Shown here: piece by piece, positions 15,302 to 35,062 of the stretch | Layout: each line of letters opens with the position of its first letter | Numbering within the stretch: the stretch's first letter is position 1 | From: Ostrea edulis | Lineage: Eukaryota | Length of the DNA: 64,000 bases | Direction: 5' to 3' | Assembly: GCF_947568905.1 (NCBI RefSeq) | Contig: NC_079172.1 | Location: 30,070,001 to 30,134,000 of the forward strand | The notes under the pieces: model-generated | The model's database searches: none | What the model saw: the letters and a program-made list of their open reading frames with translations, nothing else | Told to the model about the DNA's origin: nothing | Position numbers and translations under genes: made by a program

Positions 15302-15407
15302 AGTACAATCCCCAGAGGTGGCACGGTCCCTAGTTTTACCCAGCGCTGTCTACAGGTAATATATATATAAAGCGGCGCGCGGTGCATTGGGTGTCACTTT
15401 CGACATC

Positions 15408-19405: not shown

Positions 19406-19933
19406 ATGACGGACTACGAATCACTACATAACCCGGGTACACCACGTTATGCTCTACTGTCAGATCGAGTAACGTCGTTTGAAAATGCTCCCGAACACTT
19501 GCAGAACCTATTACCTACCATTGCAGAAGCGGGATACTTTTACAAAGGGTACGGGGATAACACGTGCTGTTTTTATTGCAACTTTGGACTTCACCATTGG
19601 GGAGCTGTCGACAATCCTTGGATACAACATGCTTATTGGTATCCTCACTGTCCTTACCTGAAGTGTAATAAGGGTAAACAATGGGTACGACAAGCCTTCA
19701 ATGCCTATGCCCGCGCTAAAGACAGTGGTTGCGATTGGGAAGGCTTACCCTTAGACGCGGCAGGGAATCCAATGTGTACCCAGAAATGTCACATTTGTTT
19801 AGAACGAGACTTGAGAATTGCTTTTTTACCTTGTGGTCATTTATGTACTTGTGCTATATGTGCTACGGGACTGAAACAATGTCCTATTTGTAGACATAGT
19901 GTTGAGCAAGCTGTACGTATTTTTATTTGTTAA
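19406..19933 (+). CDS. iap: Inhibitor of apoptosis (single BIR + C-terminal RING), 175 aa
   Basis: BIR RVTSF..AEAGYFY..CFYC..LHHW..D.PW.QH...PHCPYL; RING CHIC..LPCGHLCTCAIC..CPICR. Confidence 0.95.
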   Translation: MTDYESLHNPGTPRYALLSDRVTSFENAPEHLQNLLPTIAEAGYFYKGYGDNTCCFYCNFGLHHWGAVDNPWIQHAYWYPHCPYLKCNKGKQWVRQAFNAYARAKDSGCDWEGLPLDAAGNPMCTQKCHICLERDLRIAFLPCGHLCTCAICATGLKQCPICRHSVEQAVRIFIC

Positions 19934-19973
19934 TAAATATGTATGATCCCATGAACTTGTGTCATTTATCAAG

Positions 19974-20612
19974 ATGTATACCTACGAGACACTTGAACCT
20001 TTTCAGTTGAAACATGAATTTACCATGGTGGTGGCTGGACCCTCTAAATCGGGTAAAACAGAATTTGTCAAGCAACTGGTGCAAAATACACAGTGGATTG
20101 CACCGCCTCCCGAAAAGATAGTATGGTGTTATCGAGAATGGCAGTCCGCGTACGAATCCTTACAGGACAAGGTCACTTTTATCCGCAATATACCTCAAGA
20201 CGATGAGCAGATAGTGGCGGATCTCAGTACGCGTCATCTACTCATTTTTGATGATATGATGGGAGGTAAAGCCATCGAATCGATTGTCGACTGGTTTACG
20301 CGCAAAGCGCATCATCGCAATACCAGTGTCATTTATATCACACAAAATCTGTTTGATCGAGCAGTACAACATCGTACCATCAGTCTGAATGCTCACTATC
20401 TCGTGCTGTTTAAAAATCCTCGAGATAAATCTCAGATTGGGGTGTTAAGTCGGCAATTACAAATGCCGCATTTACTTCCAGCCTATGAGGACGCCACCCG
20501 TGTACCTCACGGGTATTTACTAGTGGACTTGAGTCCTCAGACGTCGGACGATTTAAGATTAAGAAGTCAACTCTTTACCAACTTGGCTGTGCACATGCCC
20601 CCGAGAGTATAA
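19974..20612 (+). CDS. A32-like FtsK/HerA DNA packaging ATPase
   Basis: Walker A GPSKSGKT, Walker B LLIFDD, ITQN and LNAHYLVLFKNPRD motifs. Confidence 0.95.
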   Translation: MYTYETLEPFQLKHEFTMVVAGPSKSGKTEFVKQLVQNTQWIAPPPEKIVWCYREWQSAYESLQDKVTFIRNIPQDDEQIVADLSTRHLLIFDDMMGGKAIESIVDWFTRKAHHRNTSVIYITQNLFDRAVQHRTISLNAHYLVLFKNPRDKSQIGVLSRQLQMPHLLPAYEDATRVPHGYLLVDLSPQTSDDLRLRSQLFTNLAVHMPPRV

Positions 20613-20661
20613 ATAATGTCACATCATGGGCAGGTGTATCATTCGAAAGACAATCTTCATC

Positions 20662-21534
20662 ATGGGTAGACCTTCCGCGAAGAGTAAATTAGTCAAAACG
20701 TTACGCCGTTTACAACGGGAACGGGATCCCGTTCAACGGAGCCATCTCATTGAATTAGGACGTAGAGCCTTACTCAACTGGTTTGCGATGGGCGCTCGAA
20801 ATTTATTGCGAGGCGTCTTACCAGGCAATAAAATCACTCAGCGGTTCATTCAATCCCATCGCCAAGACTTGAGTGTCATTGCCGATAAGAAGTCCAATGA
20901 AGAAGAGCGTAAAAAAGCCATTTTGAAACGAGGAGGCGCCGGATTCTTAGGAGGGACCATTATCCGTCATTTATTCAAATGGGAAACAGGCCGTAGGCCC
21001 CGTGGGGGACAACCCAAGAAAACCAAGAAACCACGGGCTAAGAAAGCTAAAAAATCGCCTCAGAGAATTCCTAAACTCATTATTCGCTTACCTAAGAAGA
21101 CACCTAAGAAATCCCCTAAGAAGTCCCCTAAGAAGACACCTCTCAGGATGAAGAATCCGTTTCCCAATTGGGCTCCAAAGAAAACCCCTCTCATTGTGAA
21201 GATGCCGTTTCCCAAGGCCACTCCCCCCAAGGCCACTAAAACGTTAGCCAATCTGAAAGCCGGATTAGCTCAAAAGAAAATGGAACGACCCATGCATGGA
21301 CCTATAGGAAGTTCCAGAACCAGTGATACTGCTCTACCGAGTTTTGCTCATACCTTTGGAAGCATGAAATTTCAACCCTTAACCACCTCAACACCGGTTC
21401 AGGTGCAAAAGAAATATAAATGTAAATTTTGCCCTCTGGTCTTCAATGCGAGAGAGAACCGCAATCGTCACGAAGAGACCGTCCATCACAAGCGTTTTGA
21501 TCCTAAACATCCGAGTGCCATTGTCCTGGACTAG
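20662..21534 (+). CDS. Basic core-like protein: conserved Maverick N-domain, GG-FL site, SPKK/TPKK repeats, C-terminal C2H2 finger (alternative start 20626)
   Basis: KRGGAGFLGG; KKTPKKSPKKSPKKTP; CKFC-x12-H-x4-H; TATA 20608 and TCATTC at 20639 favour the 20662 ATG. Confidence 0.8.
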   Translation: MGRPSAKSKLVKTLRRLQRERDPVQRSHLIELGRRALLNWFAMGARNLLRGVLPGNKITQRFIQSHRQDLSVIADKKSNEEERKKAILKRGGAGFLGGTIIRHLFKWETGRRPRGGQPKKTKKPRAKKAKKSPQRIPKLIIRLPKKTPKKSPKKSPKKTPLRMKNPFPNWAPKKTPLIVKMPFPKATPPKATKTLANLKAGLAQKKMERPMHGPIGSSRTSDTALPSFAHTFGSMKFQPLTTSTPVQVQKKYKCKFCPLVFNARENRNRHEETVHHKRFDPKHPSAIVLD

Positions 21535-21574
21535 GTATAAAAAGGAGGGGGAAGGGGCCCCACCCTTCATTACC

Positions 21575-21904
21575 ATGGCTCATACGAAGAAGTGTGAATG
21601 TCGATTACGACCTCATTTACCGCTCTTGCAGACGTTAGCGGCTCCTCACTATTCCAGCAAATTAAAGACAGAGGTGTTGAAACATTGTTCCAATGACTGC
21701 ATTTTAAAGATTTGTGAGATTGTGTACAATCTATTAAAAGGGGTGATTCCTCTCAATCCTACTCAGAAGCGACAACTGGGTCGAAAGAAACACATCTTAA
21801 GACGCTTAGTCCGGACTCAACCCGTGAAAAAACGACGAGGTATACTCATCCACCAAAAAGGATTGGGTTCGTTTGTGTGTGGCAAGATTTGTAAGAAATC
21901 ATGA
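21575..21904 (+). CDS. Conserved small basic Maverick protein (PW-like, name tentative), 109 aa
   Basis: ICEIVYNLLKGVIPL...QKGLG; TATAAAAGG at 21536. Confidence 0.8.
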   Translation: MAHTKKCECRLRPHLPLLQTLAAPHYSSKLKTEVLKHCSNDCILKICEIVYNLLKGVIPLNPTQKRQLGRKKHILRRLVRTQPVKKRRGILIHQKGLGSFVCGKICKKS

Positions 21905-22668
21905 GTCGAAAAATGGTATTGGTACCGGAAGCGATGCTCAACGAATTAAAAGGCAAATTACCTAAACCTCCCGAATTTACCTCGACTATTGGTTTACGCA
22001 GTGATTTGGACGAGATTGAACATCGAGATGATTTAACCGAGAAAGAAAAAGTGGGGTTGTACGGGCATCAACTTCATCGCTATCGTCAATATTTACAACA
22101 AGCTCGACATCCCAACCCAGCCACTCGGCCCTCCCCAACCAGTGCAGCCAGTGCCACCTCACCACCCACAACCGCCGCAGCACCCGATGACTTGGAGGAA
22201 CAGATTATCAAAAGCGTCAATAAACCGGGTCGAAAGAAAGCAGGTTTATTACTCGATCATCTCAAGAAATCCAAAGTGGTGACTTGGAATAAAGAAGGAG
22301 AAATCAGCTATAGAGGACGCAGGGTTCCCGATTCCAATATTGTGGATTTAATGACCGAAGCCCAACGACAAAGACCCTTAAGACATCGTGATCCCCCCAC
22401 GGGATTAGAGGAATTTGCTCAAGCGTTAAAAGAGACTCATGCTCCCAAAGGATATGTGAACAATCGGGATGTTATAAAAGCCATGGACAAACCAGGGAAA
22501 ATCAGTACGCCTAGACCTCTAGAGGAAGAGGAGAGCGGATTTCAAGAAATCTCGGGTTTTGACCAATCGTTCTATGAAACTCCCAGACGAATGATGACCC
22601 CTAAAAATATCTGGGAGGCCAGTAAAAAGACATCACGTGAAATTGGAAAATGGTTAAATCTACCATGA
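21901..22668 (+). CDS. Conserved Maverick protein upstream of integrase, function unknown
   Basis: KMVLVP start; LLLDHL..WNKEGEI..G..VPDSNIVDL motif typical of Maverick ORFs. Confidence 0.8.
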   Translation: MSRKMVLVPEAMLNELKGKLPKPPEFTSTIGLRSDLDEIEHRDDLTEKEKVGLYGHQLHRYRQYLQQARHPNPATRPSPTSAASATSPPTTAAAPDDLEEQIIKSVNKPGRKKAGLLLDHLKKSKVVTWNKEGEISYRGRRVPDSNIVDLMTEAQRQRPLRHRDPPTGLEEFAQALKETHAPKGYVNNRDVIKAMDKPGKISTPRPLEEEESGFQEISGFDQSFYETPRRMMTPKNIWEASKKTSREIGKWLNLP

Positions 22669-23735
22669 AAGCAGAACAGATCTTACAGCGACTGTATTAC
22701 GATCCCAAGACAGGGTATGGGGGAGTCCAGGCGTTGTATCGTCAAGTGCGTCAATTAGGACACAAGATTACCCTGTCTCAAATTCGAGAATGGGTGAAAG
22801 CTCAAGATACCTATACCTTGCATAAACCGATACGGAGGAAATTCAAGCGACGACAAACACGAGTGACGGATATGGATGAACAATGGCAATTAGATTTAGC
22901 CGATGTCTCCAGCTTGAAACAAGACAATAATGGGTATACGTTTTTATTATGTGCCATTGACGTGCTGTCTAAATATGCCTGGGTCGTGCCTTTAAAACAG
23001 AAAACGGGTAAAGAAATGATACGAGGCTTACGAGGGATTTTTCGAGAGGGACGTCGCCCCGTCCGCATTCAGTCCGATCAAGGAAAAGAATTTACCAATA
23101 AAGAATTTCGTCAAGCCTTCAAATCCATTCATTTCTTTACGACCCGTAATGCCGAAACCAAAGCCAGTATTGTGGAACGTTTTCAACGCACGCTGAAAGC
23201 ACGCATGTGGCGGTATTTTACACGTCATAAAACACGACGGTATGTCGATGTCTTGGGGGATCTGGTGTATGGTTACAATCATACCTATCATCGCAGTATC
23301 CGGCGAGCTCCTGCTCAAGTCAATGCCAAGAATGTCTTGACCGTATGGAAAACCTTGTATGGAAAACAGAGTGCCGATACCGCGAGTCGCTTGCAAGTGG
23401 GGGATCGTGTACGCATTAGTAAAGCCAAACGTACGTTTGAAAAAGGATATTTACCGAATTGGACCAAAGAGCTGTTTACCATCTCTAGAAAAGTGCCAGG
23501 ACGAAACGTCTATCGCATTCAAGATGATCACGGGGAAGAATTAGAAGGAACGTTTTACGAGAAGGAATTACAACAAGTGATTAAAGACGATGATGTCTAT
23601 GAAGTGGAAGAAATCTTAGGGTATAAAAAGCGGCGTGTGGGAAAAAAAGTCATTTCAGAAGTCAAAGTGCGTTGGAAAGGATATCCTCCCAGTTTTGATT
23701 CATGGATTCCGCAAGCGGATCTCATTCGGCCATGA
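22665..23735 (+). CDS. int: Retroviral-like DDE integrase with C-terminal chromodomain
   Basis: WQLDLAD, QSDQGKEF, VERFQRTLK; chromo YEVEEIL..VRWKGYPPSFDSWIP. Confidence 0.96.
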   Translation: MKAEQILQRLYYDPKTGYGGVQALYRQVRQLGHKITLSQIREWVKAQDTYTLHKPIRRKFKRRQTRVTDMDEQWQLDLADVSSLKQDNNGYTFLLCAIDVLSKYAWVVPLKQKTGKEMIRGLRGIFREGRRPVRIQSDQGKEFTNKEFRQAFKSIHFFTTRNAETKASIVERFQRTLKARMWRYFTRHKTRRYVDVLGDLVYGYNHTYHRSIRRAPAQVNAKNVLTVWKTLYGKQSADTASRLQVGDRVRISKAKRTFEKGYLPNWTKELFTISRKVPGRNVYRIQDDHGEELEGTFYEKELQQVIKDDDVYEVEEILGYKKRRVGKKVISEVKVRWKGYPPSFDSWIPQADLIRP

Positions 23736-23989
23736 CCAACCAGTGGACTTTCTTGGGTGAAAAAGTCCCTCGAGCAGAAATTGTGTATTTTGCACAATTA
23801 TTCCTGTGTTTAACCATCATTATCACCTCGGTCGTCATGTTAGCCTTAGGCGATCCCAATCGCGATTTTTGGATGGTCACCTTAAGTTCTTTGGTGGGCT
23901 ACGTCATGCCTAGTCCACAAATGACGTTAGCGAGCCCGAGTATAAAACAGGAACGATCTTCTTCAGATTCATCAGTTCACCATGGCTAA
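23732..23989 (+). CDS. Small two-TM membrane protein (85 aa)
   Basis: Hydrophobic IVYFAQLFLCLTIIITSVVMLAL and FWMVTLSSLVGYVMPSP; ATG overlaps the integrase stop. Confidence 0.75.
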   Translation: MTNQWTFLGEKVPRAEIVYFAQLFLCLTIIITSVVMLALGDPNRDFWMVTLSSLVGYVMPSPQMTLASPSIKQERSSSDSSVHHG

Positions 23990-24434
23990 CACACAGTACG
24001 CCTGGAAACAAGAGGGAAAGAAAACGGCATGGTTTGCGGATAAGCAGATGTGTTTGATGCATTGTAAACAACACAAAACGTCCACACATCCTGTGTACTT
24101 GTACAAACGTATACTGATACCTCACGGATGGTCAGCCTTTATCATGAAGACCAAGTATCAAGAGTTTCGCTGGAAAGTCAAAGCCTTCTGGGGATTGATG
24201 GGACGACAAGACGAATCCGATTGGACCTTAAATGAGAGTCCTTGGTTTGACCATTCCGAGGACTGTCTCCGACATTTCAAAGACATGATCAATGAAGGTT
24301 ATGATGTAGCCGATTGCTGGGGAACCCGACACTATCTGGTGATGCGACGACGCTTAGTCCCGAGACGAACACTAGAGTTGGAAGACTCGGATGCGTTGAT
24401 GTGGGGTGGTGGTGGCCGCGATCAAGAAGAATGA
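23982..24434 (+). CDS. Unknown 150-aa protein with an internally duplicated WF..CL.H motif
   Basis: TATA 23941, ATG 23982, AATAAA ~24467. Confidence 0.7.
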   Translation: MANTQYAWKQEGKKTAWFADKQMCLMHCKQHKTSTHPVYLYKRILIPHGWSAFIMKTKYQEFRWKVKAFWGLMGRQDESDWTLNESPWFDHSEDCLRHFKDMINEGYDVADCWGTRHYLVMRRRLVPRRTLELEDSDALMWGGGGRDQEE

Positions 24435-24547
24435 ATTGAATGTATTGTCATGTTGTATGTTGTTTCAAATAAAAAATTGTGAAAAAACAAAACGGTGTTG
24501 TGTATAAATAGAGAAGGAAACAGAGACAGGGGCTCATTTAAGACATC

Positions 24548-25543
24548 ATGGCTGGAGGAGAAGGGTTTTACATGACTCTGTTGAGTGATGGGTCGATGGA
24601 ATCGTTTCCGACGAATACGACTGCTCAATTTAAAACGTTATTGCCACACACCATGGACTTAACGGATGGAGCATGGGAAGTCGGATTGACCGAAATGATG
24701 TACTCGGCCAACTTACAAAACGTATCGGATAGCGAGGCTTATGTGGACGTTCTCATTCCAGATCCGTATACGCAACATGTCCAAGATCCCAACACTTATA
24801 AATGGGAAAGATTTAAGACAGAGAATATGGGCAAAGTCACGATGGCCAGGTGTGAGGTGGTGGTCCCCTGGGATCTGACGCCATGGTCCCATCTCTTTGC
24901 GGGAGGGGATAGTTTATTTCCCTTCGATATCATTCGCATTCACTTTCGACCCGGAGCTTATACACAACCTTTGGCGTTAATCAATGAAATCAACGCAGCC
25001 TTAAGGAGAACCCTGTGGAAAGTATGGACCGAGTTAGGGAATCCTAACGACGAGGGGAACAACCAGATCTTAGTGTATCACCCCGAGTACGATCGTGTCG
25101 AGTATCAGTTTAATGGGAAAGCACTGAGATCCACCCCCATGTGCATTCGTTTCCCTACGCCCTTAGCGTACAAGCTAGGTCTGGATAGTGACAAAATGAT
25201 CCTGGGCCAAGAAACCATGACGAAATGGATCAACGTGAATTACTTGGGGAACACGACCATGGATGTCTACGACAATCTGAAAGCCATGTATGTGTATTGT
25301 GACATTGTGGATCCTCAAGTGGTGGGCACCAACAAATTGAAATTATTGAGAGTCGTCCCCTGTACGGCTCAATACGACGATCGACAACAAGCCCGTTGGG
25401 AACCGATTCGAGCCGAATATTTGAAACTGAGTAAGAAATATTTCGATACCATTGAGGTACACATCATGAATTCTTTAGGGCGTCCTATGGGGTTTTTAAA
25501 TGGGCGCTCCCTAGTCAAACTTCATTTCCGCAAAGTGTATTGA
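24548..25543 (+). CDS. mCP: Minor capsid (penton) protein
   Basis: FYMTLLSD.S...PTNT..QF..LP...WEVGL; MYVYCDIVDPQVVG..LLRVV. Confidence 0.92.
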   Translation: MAGGEGFYMTLLSDGSMESFPTNTTAQFKTLLPHTMDLTDGAWEVGLTEMMYSANLQNVSDSEAYVDVLIPDPYTQHVQDPNTYKWERFKTENMGKVTMARCEVVVPWDLTPWSHLFAGGDSLFPFDIIRIHFRPGAYTQPLALINEINAALRRTLWKVWTELGNPNDEGNNQILVYHPEYDRVEYQFNGKALRSTPMCIRFPTPLAYKLGLDSDKMILGQETMTKWINVNYLGNTTMDVYDNLKAMYVYCDIVDPQVVGTNKLKLLRVVPCTAQYDDRQQARWEPIRAEYLKLSKKYFDTIEVHIMNSLGRPMGFLNGRSLVKLHFRKVY

Positions 25544-25546
25544 AAG

Positions 25547-25690
25547 ATGAAGTACCATCGAGGAGTCAGACGCCAGAAAGGACACGGAATCTGGTTTCTC
25601 ATTCCGTGGATTGCCAATGCCATTGTGGGTCAAGCGGGGCAAGGAAAGAAGAGAAAGAGACGGCGTAAAAAGTATAAAAAGCGGGTGTAA
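25547..25690 (+). CDS. 47-aa basic peptide MKYHRGVRRQKGHGIWFLIPWIANAIVGQAGQGKKRKRRRKKYKKRV (not in the ORF track)
   Basis: ATG 3 nt after the penton stop; QKGHG motif, hydrophobic core, basic tail. Confidence 0.7.
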   Translation: MKYHRGVRRQKGHGIWFLIPWIANAIVGQAGQGKKRKRRRKKYKKRV

Positions 25691-25717
25691 CCCCTAACGA
25701 AGTTCATTTACATCAAG

Positions 25718-26410
25718 ATGCACTACCATAAAGGTTTAATACGGCAGCAGGGTCACGGGCTTGGAGCCCTGTTGGGAATAGCCAGCAAAGTGGCGGGTCC
25801 CCTGATCAGCGGATTATTAGGTGGATCCCCCGCACAACAGCAACAACAACAACAACGTCCTGTCTATCAAGAGAGATATTATGATTACGACCGCCCTTAT
25901 CGCTCTTATCGGAGGAGACGACGTAGAAGCCATCCAACAGAAGAATATGACCCAGAATCTGAAAAGCAGAAGGGAAAAGGATTTTTCACCGATTTACTCA
26001 AATCGGGGGCTAAAAGTGCCTTAAAGGCTGCTGCTAAAACAGGGATGGATGTGTTAGATAATAAACGATCACTCAAAGACGCTCTCAAGACACACGGTGC
26101 CCAAGCCCTGAAAGAGACAGCAGGGTATGCCCGTAGGCGAAAATCTCGAAAAGCCCCATCCAAACGAGGAAGAAAAGCGCGCACAGGAATACTCAGGAAG
26201 CCTGGAACCACGACCCTCAAAAGAAAACAGGTGGGAAAACAGGTGGGAATACAGGAAGGAAAAGGATTTGTTAAAAGAAAACAACGTATCTTAGCTCGGG
26301 GAGGGCCTCATAAGAGACCTAGGAAGCAACCTAGGAAGCGATCTAGGAAGGGAGGTAGGAAGCTAGTGAAAAGGGGTAAGCCAAAACGCTCTCTGGATAT
26401 TTTCGACTGA
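25718..26410 (+). CDS. Basic core/membrane-lytic precursor (PZ-like)
   Basis: QQGHGLG, QKGKGFF, QEGKGFV motifs, amphipathic helices, Arg/Lys-rich; located before MCP. Confidence 0.8.
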   Translation: MHYHKGLIRQQGHGLGALLGIASKVAGPLISGLLGGSPAQQQQQQQRPVYQERYYDYDRPYRSYRRRRRRSHPTEEYDPESEKQKGKGFFTDLLKSGAKSALKAAAKTGMDVLDNKRSLKDALKTHGAQALKETAGYARRRKSRKAPSKRGRKARTGILRKPGTTTLKRKQVGKQVGIQEGKGFVKRKQRILARGGPHKRPRKQPRKRSRKGGRKLVKRGKPKRSLDIFD

Positions 26411-26489
26411 GAACCCTATAAAAAGGGAGTGAGAAGGAGCCCAGAACACATTTGATGCCAGTTCACGCTGAGTAACACATCGTTCCAAT

Positions 26490-27893
26490 ATGATGCACCG
26501 AGAATCTTGCGCTTGTGGCACCAGCAGTTTAGAACTGTTTAAAGTGCCCCCGACCAACGTCACTTTAGAAGATTCGAAATGGATGGAATATTATCCCATT
26601 TCCAGTACCCTCAACTCGGATACGGCTCCGATTGAATTTGAAATCAAAGGACAAGGAGATGAATATCTGGATTTATCCCAAACTTATCTCCAGATGGTAT
26701 GTAAATTCACGAAAGCCAATGGAACGAATCTCGCAGGAGGCAATTCGACCTCCACCCCCGTGAATAACATTCTCCATTCCTTGTTCAGTGAAATCGATGT
26801 CAGTCTCAATGGAAAAGTCATTACCCCGGGGACGGATACTTATCCCTACAAAGCGTATCTGGAGAAATTGTTGTCTTATGCACCCAAGACTCTGGAAACC
26901 CAGATGAGAGCCTGTAGCTTGTGGGAAAAAGATACGGCAGGACATATGGATGAGGTCAAATTAGAAGCTCTGGCTCAAACTCCTGTGGAATTTGCAGTAG
27001 TGTCTAACAAAGTCAACATCGCGGCCGTCATCCCGACTCCCGAGTATCCGGATGATTCCAAGAATGTAGGGTTGAGAAAACGTCACGAGAAGATTACAGA
27101 CAGTAAGGAGATCGTGTTGATGGATCGATTACATCTGGATTTGTTTGAGCAAGAGAAATGTCTCCCTAATGGCTTGGATGTCCGTCTCAGATTCAATCGC
27201 GCTCGACCCCAGTTCTACATGATGACCGCTGCCGGGAGTAGTGGGAAAGTGGCCATTCAAAGTATGATCTTGTGGGTGAGGAAAGTCAAACCTGTGCCGA
27301 GTATCATTAATCTCATCAATCAGCAACTGAGTACTCAAACGGCGAAATATCCATTGAGACGAGTGGAAGTGAAAACCTTCACCATTCCTAGTGGCACCCA
27401 ATCTAAAATCACCGATCATCTGTTTCAAGGACAGATGCCTAAACTGATCGTGTTGGGCTTTGTGGACAATGCGGCTTTTAATGGGGATAATACCAGAAAC
27501 CCCTTTCATTTCCAAAATGAGAGAGTCAAGAAATTAGAAATCAGTATCAATGGAGAAATGATGGAAACCCGACCTTTGGAACCTAATTTCACCGACGATC
27601 AGTACCTGAGATCGTATTTGAGTCTGTACAAAGGCTTGGGAAAATTAGGTCAGGACTGGGCTCCGGACATTACCCTGGAAGAGTATAAAAACGGTTACAC
27701 CCTCTGGTGTGTGGATTTCACGAAAGATCAAGAAGCCCAGACGGATAAATTTCATCTCATACAGACGGGGAACTTGAGAGTGGAAGTGCAATTTGCCGCC
27801 AACGTAGCCAGGACCTTAAACTGTGTGGTGTATGCCGTGTTCGACAATCTGCTAGAAATCAACAAACAACGAGAAGTCAGTATCGATTACTAA
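26490..27893 (+). CDS. MCP: Double jelly-roll major capsid protein (467 aa)
   Basis: C..SSLELF.VPPT; YLDLSQTYL; [10 protein letters not shown]; P..IVLGFV; GNLRVEV.F. Confidence 0.96.
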
Positions 27894-27900
27894 GAGAGAG

Positions 27901-28398
27901 ATGGATACTCAGCAATTGAGAGATGTTTTACAACGAGATTTAGGACCGGCGTTTGCCGGTGTGTATCCTCGAGATGTCATACCTGAGCTGTTACCTCATC
28001 ACAAAGCCATCGTGGTGAATACAGACCCTCACGATCGCCCTGGAGCGCATTGGGTCTGTTTGTATTTGAGTAGCCCTACCGTCGAATATTTTGATTCTTA
28101 CGGATTACCTCCCAGCCATAAAGACATCCAAGACTTTATTCAACGCCACGGAGAGACTTGGATTCATAACACCCATTGTTATCAAGATTTGAATACGGAT
28201 GTCTGTGGACAATACTGTGTGTATTTTTTACATCAACGCCATCGCCATAGAAGCACCGTACGAGAATGGTTACTTCCCTGGAAAGGCACGGCCTTACAAC
28301 GCGATCGTTTTGTGGCGGATTGGTTTAAAGAGACCTTCCGTAAACCGAGAACCCATCAAGGACAAACTTGTCAATGTCAAAGACTGAATGTATTGTAA
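27901..28398 (+). CDS. Adenain-like cysteine maturation protease
   Basis: NTD..PGAHWV, YFDSYG, Q..TDVCGQYC catalytic motifs. Confidence 0.95.
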   Translation: MDTQQLRDVLQRDLGPAFAGVYPRDVIPELLPHHKAIVVNTDPHDRPGAHWVCLYLSSPTVEYFDSYGLPPSHKDIQDFIQRHGETWIHNTHCYQDLNTDVCGQYCVYFLHQRHRHRSTVREWLLPWKGTALQRDRFVADWFKETFRKPRTHQGQTCQCQRLNVL

Positions 28399-28500
28399 AC
28401 TATGTTATTGTTATTGTTCATAGTTGGAGTTTAATAAAACGTTGGAAAAAAAAAATTTCTTGTCATTGTAATCAACCATGTCTTTTCAAAAAGAATGGGT

Positions 28501-28516
28501 AGCCCTGAAAAGGGCT
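28501..28516 (-). terminator. Histone-mRNA-type 3' stem-loop AGCCCT-TTTC-AGGGCT followed by ACCCA and HDE-like GAAAAGAC
   Basis: Minus strand AAAAC AGCCCTTTTCAGGGCT ACCCA TTCTTTTT GAAAAGAC, 94 nt after the stop of 28611-28907. Confidence 0.8.
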
Positions 28517-28610
28517 GTTTTCTTTCTCTCTCTGTTCTTGGTCTTTTCTCTTCTTCTTCTCTCTTCTCCTTCTTCTCCTTCTCTTCTTCTTCTTTTCTTC
28601 TCGGTCCCCC

Positions 28611-28907
28611 TCACTGTCTGTTCTTCTTCTTCTTTCTTCTCTTCTTTTTCTGCTCCTCCGGGGGTTGCTCGTGGTCAAACACAAAAACGGGCAACCACCC
28701 GTGTTTAAAAAACAATCTCCCCGGAGGCCGCTGTACCACTTCTAACTCTGCGTCCCAGTTTTCTTCTGGCGGGGGCAGATCCTGGCTCATGGGCGGTGGG
28801 GGAAGAGCCTCCCGTGAGGCCGGCGGGGTAATCTCTTGCTCCCAATCCTCCTCCCATTTGATACAATAATCATTCACCGTAGGGTCTGGTCCTACTCTGC
28901 GGCTCAT
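28611..28907 (-). CDS. Unknown acidic/Pro-rich 98-aa protein with a basic NLS-like tail
   Basis: ATG-initiated, shared promoter motif upstream, stem-loop downstream. Confidence 0.65.
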   Translation of the reverse strand: MSRRVGPDPTVNDYCIKWEEDWEQEITPPASREALPPPPMSQDLPPPEENWDAELEVVQRPPGRLFFKHGWLPVFVFDHEQPPEEQKKKRRKKKKNRQ

Positions 28908-28973
28908 GGTTCTGGTTCCTTTAAAAAATCGGAATGCCCGATTTTGACGTTGCGCTCGGTTTAAAAAGGCGAG

Positions 28974-29034
28974 AGCGCGGACGTCCTCGAAAACATCCCC
29001 TACCTCAGATGGCTGACGTCATGTTGATGACTCA
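28974..29034. promoter_or_regulatory. Divergent promoter: 26-bp motif copy 1, CRE TGACGTCA (29014-29021), AP-1 TGACTCA (29028-29034)
   Basis: AGCGCGGACGTCCTCGAAAACATCCC matches 30705-30730 at 25/26. Confidence 0.65.
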
Positions 29035-29082
29035 TCAAAAAACACTATATACATAGGTCACTTGTTACCATTTTTCTCAATC

Positions 29083-29484
29083 ATGTCGTTTGAACGGTAC
29101 GCGGATGATGAGAATGATGTACTAGTGTGTGGGTATTGCCGAGGACCTTGGAGCACTTGTGGCTGTTTTCATTATAAAAAAGAAAACATCCTGGCCAAAC
29201 AGAAGTGGATAGAGAGATTGGCAGAGCTGACGTATTATCCCTTTGTCTATAAATGTTGTGGTCACACTAGAGAACCCTGGCTAGAGTGTAAGTGTCCGCA
29301 ACATTGTACCATCACCCCTGAAGAAGAAATAGTGCATAAGGACTGTACCTGTGAGATCTGTCAGGAGTTTAGAGAGCGCTGGACTCATAGAAAGTTTGAT
29401 CCCCGGCTGTTTCAACATTGTCCTTACAGTCAAGAACCCCGGTCAACGTGTACCTGTGAGACCTGTCAACCAGCATGTCGGTGA
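29083..29484 (+). CDS. Cys-rich putative metal-binding protein (133 aa)
   Basis: CGYC, CGC, CC, CKC, CTCEIC, CTCETC clusters; TATA ~29046. Confidence 0.7.
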   Translation: MSFERYADDENDVLVCGYCRGPWSTCGCFHYKKENILAKQKWIERLAELTYYPFVYKCCGHTREPWLECKCPQHCTITPEEEIVHKDCTCEICQEFRERWTHRKFDPRLFQHCPYSQEPRSTCTCETCQPACR

Positions 29485-29663
29485 CGGATCTACGAGGAGA
29501 TGTATTATCTCTACCTTGGGTGGATGCTATTGTACAACAATGTAACTGTTTAACGGTGAAACCTCATGGATTAGCCGGAGGCAATTGGACTCATTATAGA
29601 CAATGGATTTGTGACTTTGCTTATCAGTATCATAAACATGTGTACATTGTCAAGAAAATGTAA
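29475..29663 (+). pseudogene. Internally deleted macrodomain (62 aa)
   Basis: N-terminal GDVL..DAIVQQCNC..PHGLA fused directly to C-terminal GLAGGNW..Y..I..FA..VYIV. Confidence 0.7.
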
Positions 29664-29775
29664 CTTTATTATAGCTTTATTCTAGCTATTACTTGTGTTA
29701 ATAAAAACTTTTTTAAAACAAACTTGTGTGTTTCTTGATTTTTGCCATAAAAAGTGTCTTTTCAAAAAAGTTGGT

Positions 29776-29791
29776 GGCCCTGAAAAGGGCC
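29776..29791 (-). terminator. Canonical histone-mRNA 3' stem-loop GGCCCT-TTTC-AGGGCC with CCAAAC/ACCAA flanks and HDE-like GAAAAGAC
   Basis: Minus strand CCAAAC GGCCCTTTTCAGGGCC ACCAA CTTTTTT GAAAAGAC, 22 nt after the stop of 29814-30602. Confidence 0.9.
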
Positions 29792-29813
29792 GTTTGGTCC
29801 TAAGGACCGACTT

Positions 29814-30602
29814 TCATTCCCTGGTTCCGGTAAACCGGCATAACGGGCACCGTCCCCGGGTGTGTCGCCGCTCCTGTAACTCTTCCACGCACGAGCAGCA
29901 AGCTGGGCGTTGCCCACATCCCCTGCACGTGATACCAGAGTGTACCCTGTCTTGCCAGCAGACAGGGCACTTAAACCAAATGGGAACCGCCCTATCTGCC
30001 CAGCCAGGGACAGTCATAGGGTGGTTCCTCGGGGGATGAGTTGCCACCGGTGCGTGGGTTGGTCTCGGTGGCGGAGTCCTCCCTGCAAACCGGATGGTAG
30101 GTGGTGGGGGTCTTGCAGGGGCTGCCGGTCTCGGTGGTGATGACGTGGCTGCCACCAGCAGCGACGGACTCTGGGCTGGACTGGGAGGTGGTGCGGGGGA
30201 CGGTGACCGCGGTGAATACTCCACCGGTGACGCTGGTGAGTCGCTCATCGGCACCGGGCTGTATTCCACTGGTGCCGATGGGATCGCTGGTGGTGGTGTT
30301 GTAGGCGTCGCCGGGGAGTAAGGTGGTGGTGGTGAGGGTGGCTGTGGGGCCCGTCGGCGCGGTCTCGTGGCCGTGGAGATCCGGGCGGTGCGGCGGCGGG
30401 GTGCCCTCCCTTCATACTCGGCCCGCACCCGGCAGATGATCTCACGGACCCCACTCTGGTCGAAAGGGGAGAAGGTGCTCAGGTCGTTCTCAGAACGCAC
30501 GACCCAATTCTCCCCTACCCGTTCCTCAGCCACCACTACCAGCCGGTACCGGAATCCAGGCAAGGTCTGAAAATTGTAGAGCGGGTCTCTTCTTGTAGCC
30601 AT
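29814..30602 (-). CDS. Pro-rich protein with C-terminal RING-like Zn finger (putative E3 ligase)
   Basis: CPVC-x-CRGC..CCSC-x-CPLC; PPPPY and YSP repeats; visibly GC-rich. Confidence 0.8.
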   Translation of the reverse strand: MATRRDPLYNFQTLPGFRYRLVVVAEERVGENWVVRSENDLSTFSPFDQSGVREIICRVRAEYEGRAPRRRTARISTATRPRRRAPQPPSPPPPYSPATPTTPPPAIPSAPVEYSPVPMSDSPASPVEYSPRSPSPAPPPSPAQSPSLLVAATSSPPRPAAPARPPPPTIRFAGRTPPPRPTHAPVATHPPRNHPMTVPGWADRAVPIWFKCPVCWQDRVHSGITCRGCGQRPACCSCVEELQERRHTRGRCPLCRFTGTRE

Positions 30603-30704
30603 TCTTCTTTCTTCTTTCTTCTTTAAAATCCTTCAAAAATCTTCTATAACTGTGCTGGATCACCAGTGAAGCAAACTGGCGAGTGCGCCGGTATATATCG
30701 GGAA

Positions 30705-30780
30705 AGCGCGGACCTCCTCGAAAACATCCCTCGCTTCGGAGACGAAGCCAAGATGGTGGCCGTCAAAATGGCGGATTTGT
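30705..30780. promoter_or_regulatory. 26-bp motif copy 2 plus YY1-like AAGATGGTGGCC / AAAATGGCGG, upstream of a TATA-like box (~30692-30698) for the RING gene
   Basis: AGCGCGGACCTCCTCGAAAACATCCC at 30705-30730. Confidence 0.6.
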
Positions 30781-31165
30781 GCTTTCGAGTAGAGAGTTTT
30801 TTCTCATTGTCTTTTTCTAGACATTCGATATCTGTGCAAGGTAGATTTAATCTGATAGATTCTGAGACGGCGAATGCGTTAAACTTATTTTTATTTTGCT
30901 ACGTCGCATAGTTTTCAAAGAAACAGAGGTTAAAGAGGTCGAGTCGAGGTTCAATGTTTCTTCACCCCCTCTTTAAAAATTTATTTCTCGACCATGTACA
31001 TCCCTAAAAACATCTCATAAGGTCTATTCGATAGAAAACACCTTATTTGATTCGATTTTCACTCTACCTTTAGGATTTTCTGGATTCCTCAACAAATAAA
31101 CCCTTCTCTGAGAGACTCAACCAAACACAGCTTTCGTGTAAACAATTTTATTCATGTCACATATT

Positions 31166-31384
31166 TCAAATACATAACTCCCACACACAACACCAATTCA
31201 CATGTCTTTTTAAAATAGGGTCCAACATTTTTTCCATTTCTCGAATCCTGCGTTGAAATCGATAGCGATCAGCGGCTACAGTCATCCAGATACTTGTCCG
31301 GTCTTCTTCGGGTAACAGATGCACTTCATTTTGATCCAGATTAAAAGTCACACGTTTAACTTGACGTACATCTCTCGAAGACAT
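31166..31384 (-). CDS. DP71L/ICP34.5/GADD34-like PP1-eIF2alpha adaptor (72 aa)
   Basis: RVxF motif KRVTF plus R..W...AADRYRFQRRI..ME..L..IL; AATAAA 15 nt after the stop. Confidence 0.88.
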   Translation of the reverse strand: MSSRDVRQVKRVTFNLDQNEVHLLPEEDRTSIWMTVAADRYRFQRRIREMEKMLDPILKRHVNWCCVWELCI

Positions 31385-31653
31385 CGTAGTCTGATTTTCT
31401 CGATTTCTGCTCTGTCTGTGGGTCGAATTCGTTTCAATTCCTGGCCCATTAAATGAATCAGTACTAAGGCTTGCGGGGTGATCCGGTTCTCGATCAAATA
31501 CTGACAGAGACATGGATAGTCCTTTAAGCTGATGGGAAATAATTCTTCTCGCATATAGTGTAACACAAATTCAAACTGCCCAGAATGAATGTCTGTGAGA
31601 TAATCCAATACATAAACTATCGCTTTCTCTGTGATGTGGTCACTGCTGGCCAT
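31348..31653 (-). CDS. Helical multigene-family member A (probable divergent Bcl-2 fold), 101 aa
   Basis: FPISLKDY..LVLIHLMGQELKR.P..EIE; DNA around the start nearly identical to member B. Confidence 0.65.
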   Translation of the reverse strand: MASSDHITEKAIVYVLDYLTDIHSGQFEFVLHYMREELFPISLKDYPCLCQYLIENRITPQALVLIHLMGQELKRIRPTDRAEIEKIRLRCLREMYVKLNV

Positions 31654-31987
31654 CCTCCGGGAATAAATGAAATGAATTAAGTTCTTCACACTTTATGTAT
31701 ACTTCTCGAAGCCAGTCCTTGGTGATACTTTCAATCTCGGCGGTTTTTTCAGGCATGCGTTTCTTGAATTCCTCCCCCGCGACATAAATTAACATCAACC
31801 CCGCATCGTTATAGAGATTGATGTACACATGGTTCCGTAGATCTGTATATTCGTCCAGAGTCATTGGAAACACCCCCGCTATCAGATAATTTTTAACAGC
31901 TTGAAACACCGTATCGTCTTGCATTTTCTCCACCCATTCTAATGCATGGTTATGCGCTTTTTCTGCGATGTTGTCACTGCTGGCCAT
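31640..31987 (-). CDS. Helical multigene-family member B (probable divergent Bcl-2 fold), 115 aa
   Basis: FPMTLDEY..NDAGLMLIYVAGEEFKKRMPEK..EIE..WLREVY. Confidence 0.65.
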   Translation of the reverse strand: MASSDNIAEKAHNHALEWVEKMQDDTVFQAVKNYLIAGVFPMTLDEYTDLRNHVYINLYNDAGLMLIYVAGEEFKKRMPEKTAEIESITKDWLREVYIKCEELNSFHLFPEDGQQ

Positions 31988-32015
31988 CCTCCAGGAATAA
32001 AGGAAAAGAAAACGG

Positions 32016-32369
32016 TTAGGTTTTTTTATACACCTTTTCCAGCCAGTGATCGGTAATCGCTACAATCGCCCCAGTCTTCTCAGGTTCCCGTCGTCTAAAT
32101 TCTTGGTCCATGTTATAAATCATGATCAATCCAGACTCTCTGTTCAGGTTGTCGGCTATATGCTTGCAAACGCTGGAATATTCATATAAGGTCATAGGAA
32201 ATTCCCAAAAGATCAACAACTTCATGGCGAATTTATATCTCAACGGCTGTTTTTCTTTCCAGTCCTTGATACACTGTAATGCAGCGCTACGAGCGTTGTT
32301 CACCGATTCTTTGTAGTCCTCGAAATGCTGTAATACAGCGGTAAGAACGTTGTTGGTCAATTCAGCCAT
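32016..32369 (-). CDS. Helical multigene-family member C (probable divergent Bcl-2 fold), 117 aa
   Basis: FPMTLYEY..NRESGLIMIYNMDQEFRRREPEK..WLEKVY. Confidence 0.65.
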   Translation of the reverse strand: MAELTNNVLTAVLQHFEDYKESVNNARSAALQCIKDWKEKQPLRYKFAMKLLIFWEFPMTLYEYSSVCKHIADNLNRESGLIMIYNMDQEFRRREPEKTGAIVAITDHWLEKVYKKT

Positions 32370-32406
32370 GATGATCAAAATGAAAAAATTCCAAAACGTT
32401 CTTGTT

Positions 32407-32739
32407 TTATAACAGGCCAGCCATTCCTTTCATACGAATCAGTTCCACGAATCCTTTTTGTAGACAATCGCGTAAGATCCGATCAATGTCACTCATCTGG
32501 TCTGGAAGATTCTGTTTCAATTCCTCAGCATACAAATAAATCATGAGTAAACGTCCCGTATTGGTATTCTCCGCTAATGAATCAGCAATCCGTTGAAAAC
32601 TATGTACATTTCTGACCTCCGGTGACATCTGTTGTACAAATTGACGAGCATTTTGAATGTGAGGATTATGTAAGGCCACGTTCATACATTGTAGTACATA
32701 ACTATATCCATTTATTCTCGTAGTAGCACTGCCGCCCAT
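32407..32739 (-). CDS. Helical multigene-family member D, the most Bcl-2-like; possible N-myristoylation (MGGSAT), 110 aa
   Basis: BH1-like SFQRIADSL..TNTGRLLMIYLYAEEL; BH2-like LQKGFVELI. Confidence 0.65.
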   Translation of the reverse strand: MGGSATTRINGYSYVLQCMNVALHNPHIQNARQFVQQMSPEVRNVHSFQRIADSLAENTNTGRLLMIYLYAEELKQNLPDQMSDIDRILRDCLQKGFVELIRMKGMAGLL

Positions 32740-32763
32740 AGTAAATAACGAACGTTCAGAAAA

Positions 32764-32843
32764 CACCTGTATTTATAGGTAAAGGTTATGCATCACGTGA
32801 TCAAACACCTGCACCACGTGATCAAACACCTGTACGTCAGCTG
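32764..32843. promoter_or_regulatory. E-box-rich bidirectional promoter with a 21-bp tandem repeat
   Basis: CACCTG x3, CACGTG x2, CAGCTG x1; minus-strand TATAAAT at 32771-32777. Confidence 0.6.
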
Positions 32844-32878
32844 GTTTTTCTACAGTCATTCTTGTCTGACCTTCAGTC

Positions 32879-33385
32879 ATGGATACACGGAGAATTTTAA
32901 GAGCGAGACGCCGCCGCCAGGGAATACAACCAGTAGAGAATTTAACCATAGTAGAAGATTATGTAGACGAGATGGAGATCTGGGATAATTTAGTACAGAG
33001 ATGTCGCCATCGATTACGCTGGGGCCGATCTAAAAATTGGTGTTTTGACTATGTATTGCGGTCACATGAAACAGTGGAGGATATTTACCTGCGTTTAAGT
33101 GACATGTACCTGAAAAATTCCCCCCTCATACAGTACATGATTTACCAGTTTTACACGTTATTGAACGGCACTCAAAAAGTATCGGGATTTATTCGACTGG
33201 AGAAACCACGTTACCGGAGAAGTGTATGGGTATTGTTTTGGGATGCACACTGGATGTGGGAAACCGTCGAAGAGATACGTTTCCCCGGGAGAAGAGCTCG
33301 ACAATTAGTACAACACATTATATCCGAAGATCATGACTTACACGTGTATATAGAAGAACCTGCGTATGAAGCCGGCCATTTTTAA
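32879..33385 (+). CDS. Inactivated CRESS-DNA-virus Rep-like HUH endonuclease domain (168 aa)
   Basis: Motif I-like RSKNWCF; YMIYQ..NGTQKVSGFIRLEKP..AHW aligns by eye with circovirus-type YxIxxxE..GTPHLQGF..AHxE; catalytic His and Tyr absent. Confidence 0.65.
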   Translation: MDTRRILRARRRRQGIQPVENLTIVEDYVDEMEIWDNLVQRCRHRLRWGRSKNWCFDYVLRSHETVEDIYLRLSDMYLKNSPLIQYMIYQFYTLLNGTQKVSGFIRLEKPRYRRSVWVLFWDAHWMWETVEEIRFPGRRARQLVQHIISEDHDLHVYIEEPAYEAGHF

Positions 33386-33404
33386 AAATAAAAACTTCAT
33401 GCAC

Positions 33405-33420
33405 AGCCCTTTTTAGGGCT
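33405..33420 (+). terminator. Third histone-type stem-loop AGCCCT-TTTT-AGGGCT
   Basis: 19 nt after the stop of 32879-33385; flanks GCAC/ACTTT; no clear HDE; AATAAA also at 33387-33392. Confidence 0.6.
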
Positions 33421-33705
33421 ACTTTAAACACCAATATAAGTTCCATTCCACTAAAGTCAATGTGTACCAATGGGCACTAGCACGCGCTGGTCGCGAGAAA
33501 CCGGCTTTTCAAGTTCAATTAGTGCACTAGCACGCGCTGGTCGCGCGATGTTCTAGCTGAAACCGGTTTTTCCAGAAAAAGATGATGCAACCACGTGATC
33601 CCCACGTGCCCCTCACGAGACAGAATAGTCTAGACATTTTGCTGGCTATAAAAGCGGAGCCCCAGTGTCAGTCCTCATTCGATCTTCAATCACCTTCCAG
33701 AAGAC

Positions 33706-34623
33706 ATGGCTCAGAAACAACTAGAATTTGTGGACAAAGCTCAGAAGAAAATAGATCAGCTGGTACAGAAGGAGATGGGGCCACAGAAAGACTACATTGA
33801 ACTGAAGAAAGCTAAGAGTGACGATCAGAAGACTGAACTGGGGAAGACCTCGAACTTCTTGCTCACGTCTCCAGACTACGTTGCTCAAAGAAGAAGAGAA
33901 GAGAAGAAGATGGCCCAGACCTCGAACCAGACCACGAGCTTCAATCTCACGCCTTCAGACCACGTTGCTCGACAAGTGAAGATGGCCCAGACCTCGGATT
34001 ACCTCCCTAGCCAGAATCCGACAGACCCGGGATTAGGCTTCTATTTTCCCGATTCACAGGACGCTACGGGACTGGAGATGGGCTTATACGATAAACCCCC
34101 CTTCGGCGGAGAAGATTCCCCCATGAGCAGGACCGATTTCGCCATCATTACCACGACACTAGACGGGATCGTTAACCGCATTAATGTGCTGAGTAATGAG
34201 ATTGGAAATCATACCACAATCCTACTGAAGAAGCTGGAAGACCTGACTTCTAAAAAACCTAGGAAGGAATACACTCCAGATTACACTGCTAACCCGTGCT
34301 ACACGTGTGGAGAAACAGGACATTGGTCGCCGGATTGCCCACAGAAAACAGATTATCCGCAGACCAGTAAGAAATCGTGGTCGGCAGATTCTCAACAGAC
34401 CAGCAAGAAAACCAAACAAAAGGATCCTTGCTTCAAATGCGGAAAAATAGGACACTGGATTAGTGAGTGTCCAGAAGAACAAGCGGAGATAGATGCGATG
34501 ATTGGACCCGTACCTGGCTCAAAACCACCTGTGAAGAGAGAATACACACCGTTAGAGATGTGGAATCCACCCGCACCTACTGAAGAACGGCCAAAAAAGA
34601 AGAAGAAACTCAGCAGAAAGTAA
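33706..34623 (+). CDS. Double CCHC zinc-knuckle protein with coiled coil and NLS (305 aa)
   Basis: CYTCGETGHWSPDC and CFKCGKIGHWISEC; PKKKKK; TATAAAAG at 33647; AATAAA 34735 inside the right TIR. Confidence 0.85.
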   Translation: MAQKQLEFVDKAQKKIDQLVQKEMGPQKDYIELKKAKSDDQKTELGKTSNFLLTSPDYVAQRRREEKKMAQTSNQTTSFNLTPSDHVARQVKMAQTSDYLPSQNPTDPGLGFYFPDSQDATGLEMGLYDKPPFGGEDSPMSRTDFAIITTTLDGIVNRINVLSNEIGNHTTILLKKLEDLTSKKPRKEYTPDYTANPCYTCGETGHWSPDCPQKTDYPQTSKKSWSADSQQTSKKTKQKDPCFKCGKIGHWISECPEEQAEIDAMIGPVPGSKPPVKREYTPLEMWNPPAPTEERPKKKKKLSRK

Positions 34624-34724
34624 TGGACTGTGCTTGAACTGTTATACTTATTGAACTGTTTTTTATGCTTATTGAACTGTTTTTATGTTTATTGAATTGT
34701 TTTGCATTGTTCTATGCTTGTACC

Positions 34725-35062
34725 ATTGTTCTTTAATAAACATGTCAACTTAAAACCTTGTGTTATTCTTTTAGATTTAATACACTGTTATTCTTTTAGA
34801 TTTAATACACAGGATTTCACTGGATTTTCAGAAAAATAGCAGGAACTCATTCCAGGAACTCAAAGCGAAAGTACCGCATCATAGACCAGCGGCCATAGGC
34901 CAGTCTATTCACCCGCTCTACAACCCCTGCTGGGGTTGACCCCGTCCTAGTGCACTCCGTTGACCCCGACACCGCTTGACCAATCAAAAACGCTCTTGCT
35001 TGACCTCATTTGCATAAAAAGTGCACTCAGTTGAACTCCCTATCGGGACGCGTTATACTACT
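34725..35062 (-). repeat. Right TIR (338 bp)
   Basis: Ends ...CGTTATACTACT followed by TSD GACGGG. Confidence 0.97.

Follow-up and report, generated by a model that had tools for sequence, protein, structure and literature searches.

A complete, young Maverick/Polinton of the flat oyster Ostrea edulis with a set of predicted anti-apoptotic and translation-sustaining genes

We describe a complete and young Maverick/Polinton in the genome of the flat oyster Ostrea edulis, lying within a 64,000-nucleotide stretch of contig NC_079172.1 (assembly GCF_947568905.1, forward-strand positions 30,070,001 to 30,134,000), referred to here as the window and numbered from its first letter. The element occupies positions 14964-35062 (20,099 bp) and is larger than the 19406..34623 span given to it in an earlier reading made from the letters alone (the sequence-only reading), although all of the open reading frames (ORFs) named in that reading were found at that span. 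We interpret it as a recently active integrating DNA virus (a Maverick/polintovirus) of flat oysters whose accessory genes sustain survival and protein synthesis in the cell that produces it, an interpretation to which we assign a probability of roughly 0.6 and which draws on the element's anatomy, its recent integration at many sites, the motifs and folds of its proteins, purifying selection, and allele exchange between subfamilies. Its proposed assignment to a mollusc host agrees with the NCBI records, which name close relatives of its inhibitor of apoptosis protein (IAP) as Ostrea edulis proteins.

The element is bounded by terminal inverted repeats (TIRs) of 345 nt each that are 100% complementary, start with AGTAGT and end with ACTACT, and are flanked by a 6-bp target-site duplication (TSD), GACGGG. 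It has the (AGT)2-ended TIRs, 6-bp TSD, protein-primed DNA polymerase B (pPolB), retrovirus-like integrase, packaging ATPase, and C5 protease of a Maverick/Polinton; the TIR and TSD definition is that of PMC8097293, which also describes a capsid module in the order integrase, minor capsid, PW, major capsid, and protease. The 331-aa and 467-aa ORFs are designated putative minor and major capsid proteins because of their place in that order and their size. Motifs in the 467-aa ORF that we take to be capsid motifs form part of the basis for its label. The features are as follows.

14958..14963 (no strand): left TSD, GACGGG, 6 bp
14964..15308 (plus): left TIR, 345 nt, starting AGTAGT, 100% complementary to 34718-35062
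15408..19370 (plus): pPolB (Pfam DNA_pol_B_2, E 2.5e-57)
19406..19933 (plus): IAP, 175 aa, with one BIR and a C-terminal RING (Pfam BIR E 1.7e-15, RING E 9.6e-12)
19974..20612 (plus): packaging ATPase, A32/FtsK-like (Pfam Pox_A32 E 5.4e-7, over the cut-off)
20626..22668 (plus): three conserved core ORFs of 302, 152/109 and 255 aa
22650..23735 (plus): retrovirus-like integrase with chromodomain (Pfam rve E 1.3e-10, Chromo E 4.1e-8)
23702..24434 (plus): two small conserved ORFs of 95 and 150 aa
24548..25543 (plus): putative minor capsid protein, 331 aa, from gene order and size
25718..26410 (plus): basic ORF, 230 aa, at the likely PW position
26490..27893 (plus): putative major capsid protein (MCP), 467 aa, from gene order and size
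27901..28398 (plus): maturation protease, adenain-type C5 (Pfam Peptidase_C5 E 2.9e-4, 21.0 bits against a cut-off of 21.3)
28611..28907 (minus): 98-aa ORF with a basic tail (omega 0.23; omega is defined below)
29083..29484 (plus): Cys-rich ORF, 133 aa, in family A only
29477..29663 (plus): macrodomain relic, 62 aa, with an in-frame internal deletion
29814..30602 (minus): RING-like ORF, 262 aa
31166..31513 (minus): DP71L/GADD34-like PP1 adaptor, 115 aa
31348..31653 (minus): B1, predicted minimal Bcl-2-fold paralogue without the BH1 Gly-Arg
31640..31987 (minus): B2, minimal Bcl-2-fold paralogue by AlphaFold model, without the BH1 arginine
32016..32369 (minus): B3, paralogue of B2
32407..32739 (minus): B4, predicted minimal Bcl-2 protein with a BH1-like NxGR and a modelled BH3 trap
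32879..33385 (plus): ORF with weak likeness to CRESS-virus Rep endonucleases (Pfam Viral_Rep E 0.015)
33706..34623 (plus): 305-aa ORF with two CCHC zinc knuckles (Pfam zf-CCHC E 3.1e-15)
34718..35062 (minus): right TIR, ending ACTACT
35063..35068 (no strand): right TSD, GACGGG, 6 bp

The element belongs to a large set of related copies. A search of the genome with the capsid protein gives at least 91 scored matches (of 270 candidates), two of them with stops; family A accounts for 78, at 97-100% identity, and family B for the other 13, at 87-88%. With the IAP there are 104 full-length matches among 150 scored of 326 candidates, again two with stops, representing three alleles of about 99, 87, and 68% identity. 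Right halves were retrieved for 70 copies and left halves for 40, and 65 of the 70 right halves share the terminal motif in differing flanks and are therefore independent insertions. Most of the ORFs are intact: among the right halves, PP1 adaptor in 64, B1 in 67, B2 in 63, B3 in 47 (it is absent from 22), B4 in 66, the RING-like ORF in 60, and the macrodomain in 51; among the left halves, IAP in 39 (absent from the other), integrase in 32, and major capsid in 39. The ORF at 29083-29484 is open in 55 of the 57 copies that carry it. Accessory alleles have been swapped between subfamilies, with a family-B-type IAP in 5/28 family-A left halves and the other B1 allele in 6/56 right halves classed as family A. 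Assembled contigs of four of seven listed sequencing runs each cover all 30 bins, in data where contig depth cannot give copy number; one of the four, X1, bears a metatranscriptomic label but is flagged as probable DNA. In run X5, 15320-34710 is covered by long, near-identical contigs at a depth (read without a host baseline) of about 220-265, unlike the fragmented contigs of another (X2), which could reflect a dominant variant or collapsed copies.

Selection was measured as omega, the ratio of nonsynonymous to synonymous substitution rates (dN/dS), using one-ratio codon models on intact ORFs with broken copies excluded. The core genes are strongly constrained (ATPase 0.12, integrase 0.15, MCP 0.16, protease 0.22, minor capsid 0.25), and the stronger constraint on the morphogenesis genes (0.12-0.25) argues for particle formation. 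Neutral decay of the accessory ORFs, named beforehand in the sequence-only reading as the outcome contradicting it, is not what is seen: these are mostly intact, with omegas between 0.26 and 0.54 (B4 0.26, macrodomain 0.32, PP1-adaptor core outside the overlap with B1 0.38, RING-like 0.44, B2 0.48, B3 0.51 with p 0.027, IAP 0.54 with p 9e-5), and for these seven omega is below 1 with likelihood-ratio p values from 0.027 to 2e-21. The Rep-like and CCHC ORFs have omegas of 0.31 and 0.43, respectively, and between-allele pairwise counts agree with the codon models. Within family A, variants shared among copies show lower ratios than singletons, at 0.05 vs 0.28 for the ATPase and 0.08 vs 0.30 for the integrase, and shared variants of the youngest family are also mostly synonymous in the protease (0.12) and MCP (0.20); because this holds for ATPase, protease, and MCP, the morphogenesis genes have been constrained in the latest burst.

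The DP71L-like adaptor is real, with the DP71L protein of African swine fever virus (ASFV) the best match in a profile search of the PDB (9nb9_B, E 1.3e-4) and PPP1R15B the next; Pfam PP1c_bdg scores 24.9 bits, below the 26.1 cut-off, and another allele scores 31.1. The RVxF PP1-docking motif is present in 65 of 66 aligned copies, and the protein aligns with both leucines of DP71L LSAVL. Using the eIF2-alpha-binding motif pattern in PMC5346070 as reference, all positions except the Gly/Asn/Leu one are present in 66/66 copies, and the strict pattern in 0/66. The protein is predicted to recruit PP1 to dephosphorylate eIF2-alpha. Codons 1-55 overlap B1 in a different frame; this overlapped half has an omega of 1.68, and we discard a whole-ORF dN/dS of 1.28, which the overlap produces artificially. 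A start at the second Met, giving a DP71L-sized protein of 72 aa, was dropped since that Met is missing from the other allele. A poly(A) signal lies 3' of the adaptor. We note that two database proteins (P0025 and P0058) fuse a B1-like domain to a PP1 adaptor, and B3 to B1, the adjacency being kept in distant relatives, and that at least 12 equal-scoring genomic matches (G000:C8:33733640 and 11 more) with 53% identity to the adaptor core lie in 83-aa frames, perhaps representing a separate element family with its own adaptor.

The four proteins B1-B4 (31348-32739, leftwards) are mutual homologues of 101-117 aa (hhalign 98.5%, E 1.5e-15), and a profile of 17 paralogues compared with 1.84 billion representatives finds 31 relatives among 50% representatives; B1 has two alleles that are 38% identical. 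The Bcl-2 identity proposed for all four rests on folds, and sequence matches are not significant: B4 and the paralogue profile find nothing significant in the PDB by sequence, there is no match to Pfam Bcl-2 in the 28 distant relatives scanned, and a match to FPV039 (E 0.49) was set aside as mostly out of register. AlphaFold models of B4 and B2 (pLDDT 80 and 81) have five helices each. In VIA the top nine entries for B2 are all Bcl-2 family members (Bcl-xL Z 8.7, rmsd 3.0, 102 residues aligned), as are eight of the top ten for B4 (BOK Z 6.8, rmsd 3.6, 101 aligned). Searches with B4 gave no usable match in the ESM Atlas and mixed matches in BFVD (best E 0.79). By these models B2 and B4 have the Bcl-2 helical fold, and by homology to them B1 and B3 would have a fold of the same type. 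The sequence-only reading thus holds in that there is one family with modelled Bcl-2 folds for B2 and B4, and is narrowed in that B4 alone carries the BH1 Gly-Arg typical of BH3 traps: NxGR is present in 68/68 intact B4 copies in register with the host NWGR, with loss of the Trp, and alignments of B1-B3 have no BH1 Gly-Arg.

A complex model of B4 with a host BH3 peptide (L126), which we take to be from a Bak-like protein, scores 0.84 compared with 0.01 for the best of three controls; at least 92% of contacts recur between runs, the partner has a pLDDT of at least 85, and Gly62 and Arg63 sit on the Gly-Asp of the peptide. The score mark reached here is also reached by 51/78 solved versus 2/108 mismatched microbial pairs, and by 39/65 versus 2/126 eukaryotic pairs. 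The model shows likeness to Bcl-2 complexes, not binding, because similar complexes have already been solved. No transmembrane segment is predicted in B1-B4. All 68 intact B4 copies start with Met-Gly-Gly, and we speculate that N-myristoylation could stand in for a membrane anchor.

The IAP is also real, matching both BIR and RING in Pfam; across 40 aligned copies no BIR variant has lost the zinc ligands, and the RING is cIAP-like. Binding of caspases or IAP antagonists and E3 activity are predicted. Element-type IAP places account for 116 of 150 scored BIR matches in the genome (from 374 candidates), a count in which host exons are under-represented and in which the element context was checked for 39 fetched copies and the window. 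NCBI annotates element IAPs as host IAP genes (P0009, P0011, P0013, P0100; L092, L094, L099, L100). One of them, P0011 (XP_056015982.1, 'BIRC7-like'), has exactly the sequence of the L100 element's IAP; two gene models are chimeras in which an element IAP is spliced to an element ATPase. Two surveys of bivalve IAPs credit dispersed intronless IAPs to retroposition (PMC13159474, PMC8917759), and the words Polinton and Maverick do not occur in them.

The macrodomain was described in the sequence-only reading as a relic, which is accurate for the window copy (62 aa compared with 165 aa in sister copies, through in-frame loss of about 100 codons) and for a minority lineage with 46-62-aa forms (16/70), but most copies encode an intact protein. 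Intact copies weakly match BT1257-type macrodomains, with hits to PDB 2fg1 (BT1257; E 0.0033), DarG (E 0.0014), and phrog_335 (E 1.2e-9). A scan of IMG/VR with the capsid protein gave three pattern matches, none of which was confirmed, and a metagenome scan gave two loci, one of them a short real relative. The decayed metagenome contig L128 keeps capsid (45-62% identity), protease, and macrodomain (55%) in the order of the element, so the macrodomain is old in the lineage. The RING ligase label given to the ORF at 29814-30602 is overstated: it encodes a conserved N-terminal domain, a Pro-rich linker, and a C-terminal Cys-rich finger that is weakly RING-like (Pfam zf-RING_2 E 0.0048 in the C-terminal part); elsewhere RING entries score E 0.37 or worse with ZZ domains higher, and in the Atlas RING leads at 0.82-0.83.

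Among the remaining features, TATA boxes lie 30-50 nt upstream of 9/24 element ORFs, including B2, B3, and B4, compared with 16/704 control ATGs. The Rep-like ORF (32879-33385) has a counterpart at L019:2103-2432 with similarly weak likeness to the Rep endonuclease domain (Pfam E 0.015 and 0.048), and these ORFs apparently lack the HUH histidines; there are two in family B. The double-CCHC protein (33706-34623) adjoins the right TIR and varies in length. A short GC-stemmed palindrome is repeated at 28484-28520, 29759-29795, and 33403-33422, downstream of gene ends, and may be a terminator or processing signal; a 29-nt repeat (93%) at 28971-28999 and 30702-30730, 5' of two minus-strand genes, may be a common promoter element. 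Older inverted repeats (14381-14827 and 35293-35734, 74-91%) flank the Polinton, which apparently inserted into an earlier non-autonomous DNA transposon. Elsewhere in the window are a TRIM-like RING exon of the host (12314-12709, minus strand, Pfam E 2.3e-11), 2 kb left of the insertion, and a 33-nt repeat array with strong C skew from 57337 to about 58900 that is possibly a coding repeat.

In the infection cycle that we propose, where all biochemical activities, expression, and particle formation are predicted, the element would be copied as linear DNA by its own polymerase and integrated with a 6-bp duplication, and packaging in a capsid would probably carry it to new cells; that the morphogenesis genes stayed under constraint in the latest burst speaks for particles and re-infection, an argument made previously for fish Mavericks (PMC8097293). 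The PP1 adaptor would bring host PP1 to eIF2-alpha for dephosphorylation, B4 would trap pro-death BH3 helices such as that of Bak, and the BIR-RING IAP would bind and ubiquitinate caspases or IAP antagonists. B1-B3 may be Bcl-2-fold scaffolds turned to other partners, perhaps in innate signalling, for which the Bcl-2-fold proteins of poxviruses are a precedent, and the macrodomain, where intact, may reverse ADP-ribosylation. Together these would protect the producing cell against Bak/Bax, caspases, and arrest through eIF2-alpha.

Several observations weigh against this interpretation. Recombination breaks the single-tree assumption of the codon models, the copy sample, drawn from the 91 matches scored among 270 candidates, is skewed towards young copies with the best scores, and the accessory omegas are moderate; the non-overlapping half of B1 (0.91, p 0.75) and ORF 29083 (0.80, p 0.23) do not differ from neutral, this latter ORF being neutral or diversifying, nor does the IAP linker (0.68, p 0.23). 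Spread continues in lineages with a short macrodomain (16/70 copies) or without B3 (22/70). The capsid, protease, and ATPase genes described as intact are indeed open, and Pfam matches the protease and ATPase, but the 331-aa and 467-aa capsid ORFs match nothing in Pfam, NCBIfam, PHROGs, or the PDB. By sequence the Bcl-2 assignment is weak, with Pfam Bcl-2 matching B4 alone (E 0.0066, 17.4 bits against a cut-off of 31.4) and B1-B3 not at all, and hhalign against host Bcl-2 exons giving P 0.033-0.035, yet in BH1 register. The VIA Z scores of 6.8-8.7 are modest for helical bundles, and Foldseek matches for B4 are almost all to Bcl-2 proteins but at E 0.19 or worse, and for B2 are mixed in the PDB, with a best E of 1.5. 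Solved Bcl-2:BH3 structures may simply be echoed in the complex model, whose calibration does not extend to peptides or to host-pathogen pairs.

A sceptical explanation is that the accessory ORFs are passive, decaying captures and the four paralogues generic helical bundles rather than Bcl-2 proteins: no Bcl-2 match is significant by sequence or Foldseek, 0/28 distant relatives match Pfam Bcl-2, and genes are lost in some lineages. This we find highly improbable given the omega below 1 in seven accessory genes, the top ranking of Bcl-2 proteins by two separately predicted models, and the agreement of the BH1 register across Pfam, hhalign, and the complex model. A different explanation is that the element is helper-dependent or beneficial to its host, reactivated by a larger virus or intracellular parasite, with the kit prolonging survival of the co-infected cell or aiding stress tolerance of the oyster. 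Consistent with this are the roughly 100 copies of the IAP that each genome holds intact (full-length matches number 104, two with stops), the Polinton-like viruses described in association with entomopoxviruses (PMC11296320), and the lack of an RNA polymerase gene in an element that nonetheless has host-type TATA and poly(A) signals; the same signals make a helper unnecessary, however, and singleton changes in several accessory genes look neutral (IAP 1.16, macrodomain 1.14, B1 1.12; small counts), indicating that the host does not preserve each integrated copy, and we view this explanation as quite improbable.

The element could instead be a germline selfish element with no extracellular phase today, its kit shielding the oocyte, spermatocyte, or embryo when free linear DNA from copy-and-paste amplification triggers stress arrest and DNA-damage apoptosis, and the constraint on capsid genes reflecting either a function inside the cell or descent from a virus in the recent past. 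All of our evidence comes from integrated copies, the 91 or more heritable insertions require germline activity, and the capsid module, with omegas of 0.12-0.25, is much less constrained than that of fish Mavericks, for which a different method gave 0.001-0.0001 (PMC8097293). We nevertheless regard an exclusively germline existence as unlikely, since the shared variants of the youngest family are mostly synonymous in ATPase (0.05), protease, and MCP, and an antagonist of PKR and the integrated stress response would suit high viral gene expression better than transposition. We favour an integrating virus that was recently active. A bolder proposal can be made tentatively, and we think it somewhat more doubtful than not: that this is a still-circulating infectious DNA virus of flat oysters whose 20 kb hold a counter-defence set directed at ADP-ribosylation, apoptosis, and shut-off through eIF2-alpha, among it the smallest Bcl-2 fold that traps BH3 and a family of re-purposed Bcl-2 scaffolds, and that a substantial share of the dispersed, intronless 'IAP expansion' of bivalves, now put down to retroposition, consists of Polinton IAPs.

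It is still debated whether the Polintons of animals function as viruses, and selected anti-host genes in dozens of young, intact copies are a strong argument that they are; the flat oyster, a farmed species, offers a tractable system. Polintons also offer a new source for intronless bivalve IAPs, which is testable in existing assemblies, and IAP family counts and expression studies in bivalves are possibly confounded by them. At 110 aa, B4 would define a minimal BH3 trap.

The element shares its size, AGTAGT TIRs, 6-bp TSD, pPolB, integrase, ATPase, protease, capsid-module order, and variable accessory region with the Mavericks/Polintons and adintoviruses (PMC8502044; Barreat and Katzourakis 2021, PMC8097293). 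Bcl2 and IAP homologues have been reported in adintoviruses by Starrett et al. 2021 (PMC8502044), in whose Supplementary Fig S2 IAP labels appear, judging from text order, alongside the maps for Mytilus and Pinctada. Polintons with IAP and Bcl-2 have been reported before, and the PP1 adaptor and macrodomain are apparently unreported: an open-access full-text search found no report of either in a Polinton, DP71L and GADD34 are not in the searched part of the PMC8502044 supplement (a PP1 adaptor elsewhere in it being possible), and a 2024 review of viral Bcl-2 proteins (PMC11209288) does not mention Polintons or adintoviruses. The oyster element differs from the adintoviruses in joining an IAP, three or four Bcl-2-fold genes, a PP1 adaptor, and a macrodomain, with selection measured, and its Bcl-2-fold proteins are 100-117 aa compared with 197 aa for the Branchiostoma adintovirus Bcl2 (BFVD).

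The parallel drawn with ASFV is correct in that A224L, A179L, and DP71L form the trio as described (PMC5618007), but it reflects convergence rather than descent: A224L has no RING (PMC5618007), and because of this the element IAP is not its orthologue. The element IAP has the BIR zinc ligands and cIAP-like RING of baculovirus-type and cellular BIR-RING IAPs, with a single BIR in 175 aa. Other large viruses also combine such genes. The intact macrodomains match the group of BT1257 (2fg1) and 5e3b, which we take to be TARG1/DarG-like; the window copy is broken. With ASFV DP71L, HSV ICP34.5, and GADD34/CReP (PPP1R15), the oyster adaptor shares RVxF, the W-x3-A-x-D-R-x-R-F eIF2-alpha motif, and the DP71L LSAVL leucines, and it differs in deviating at one motif position in all copies and in having its N-terminal half overprinted on B1. 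B1-B4 resemble ASFV A179L and other viral Bcl-2 proteins (GIV66, F1L, ORFV125) in predicted helical Bcl-2 topology and, for B4, in the modelled BH3-in-groove arrangement, and they share the lack of a transmembrane anchor with A179L (PMC5618007), which is 8% identical to B4 in the fold match. In contrast to these viral proteins they have five long helices rather than about eight, a reduced BH2 region, and 8-16% identity, and they are encoded as tandem paralogues, three of which lack the BH1 arginine.

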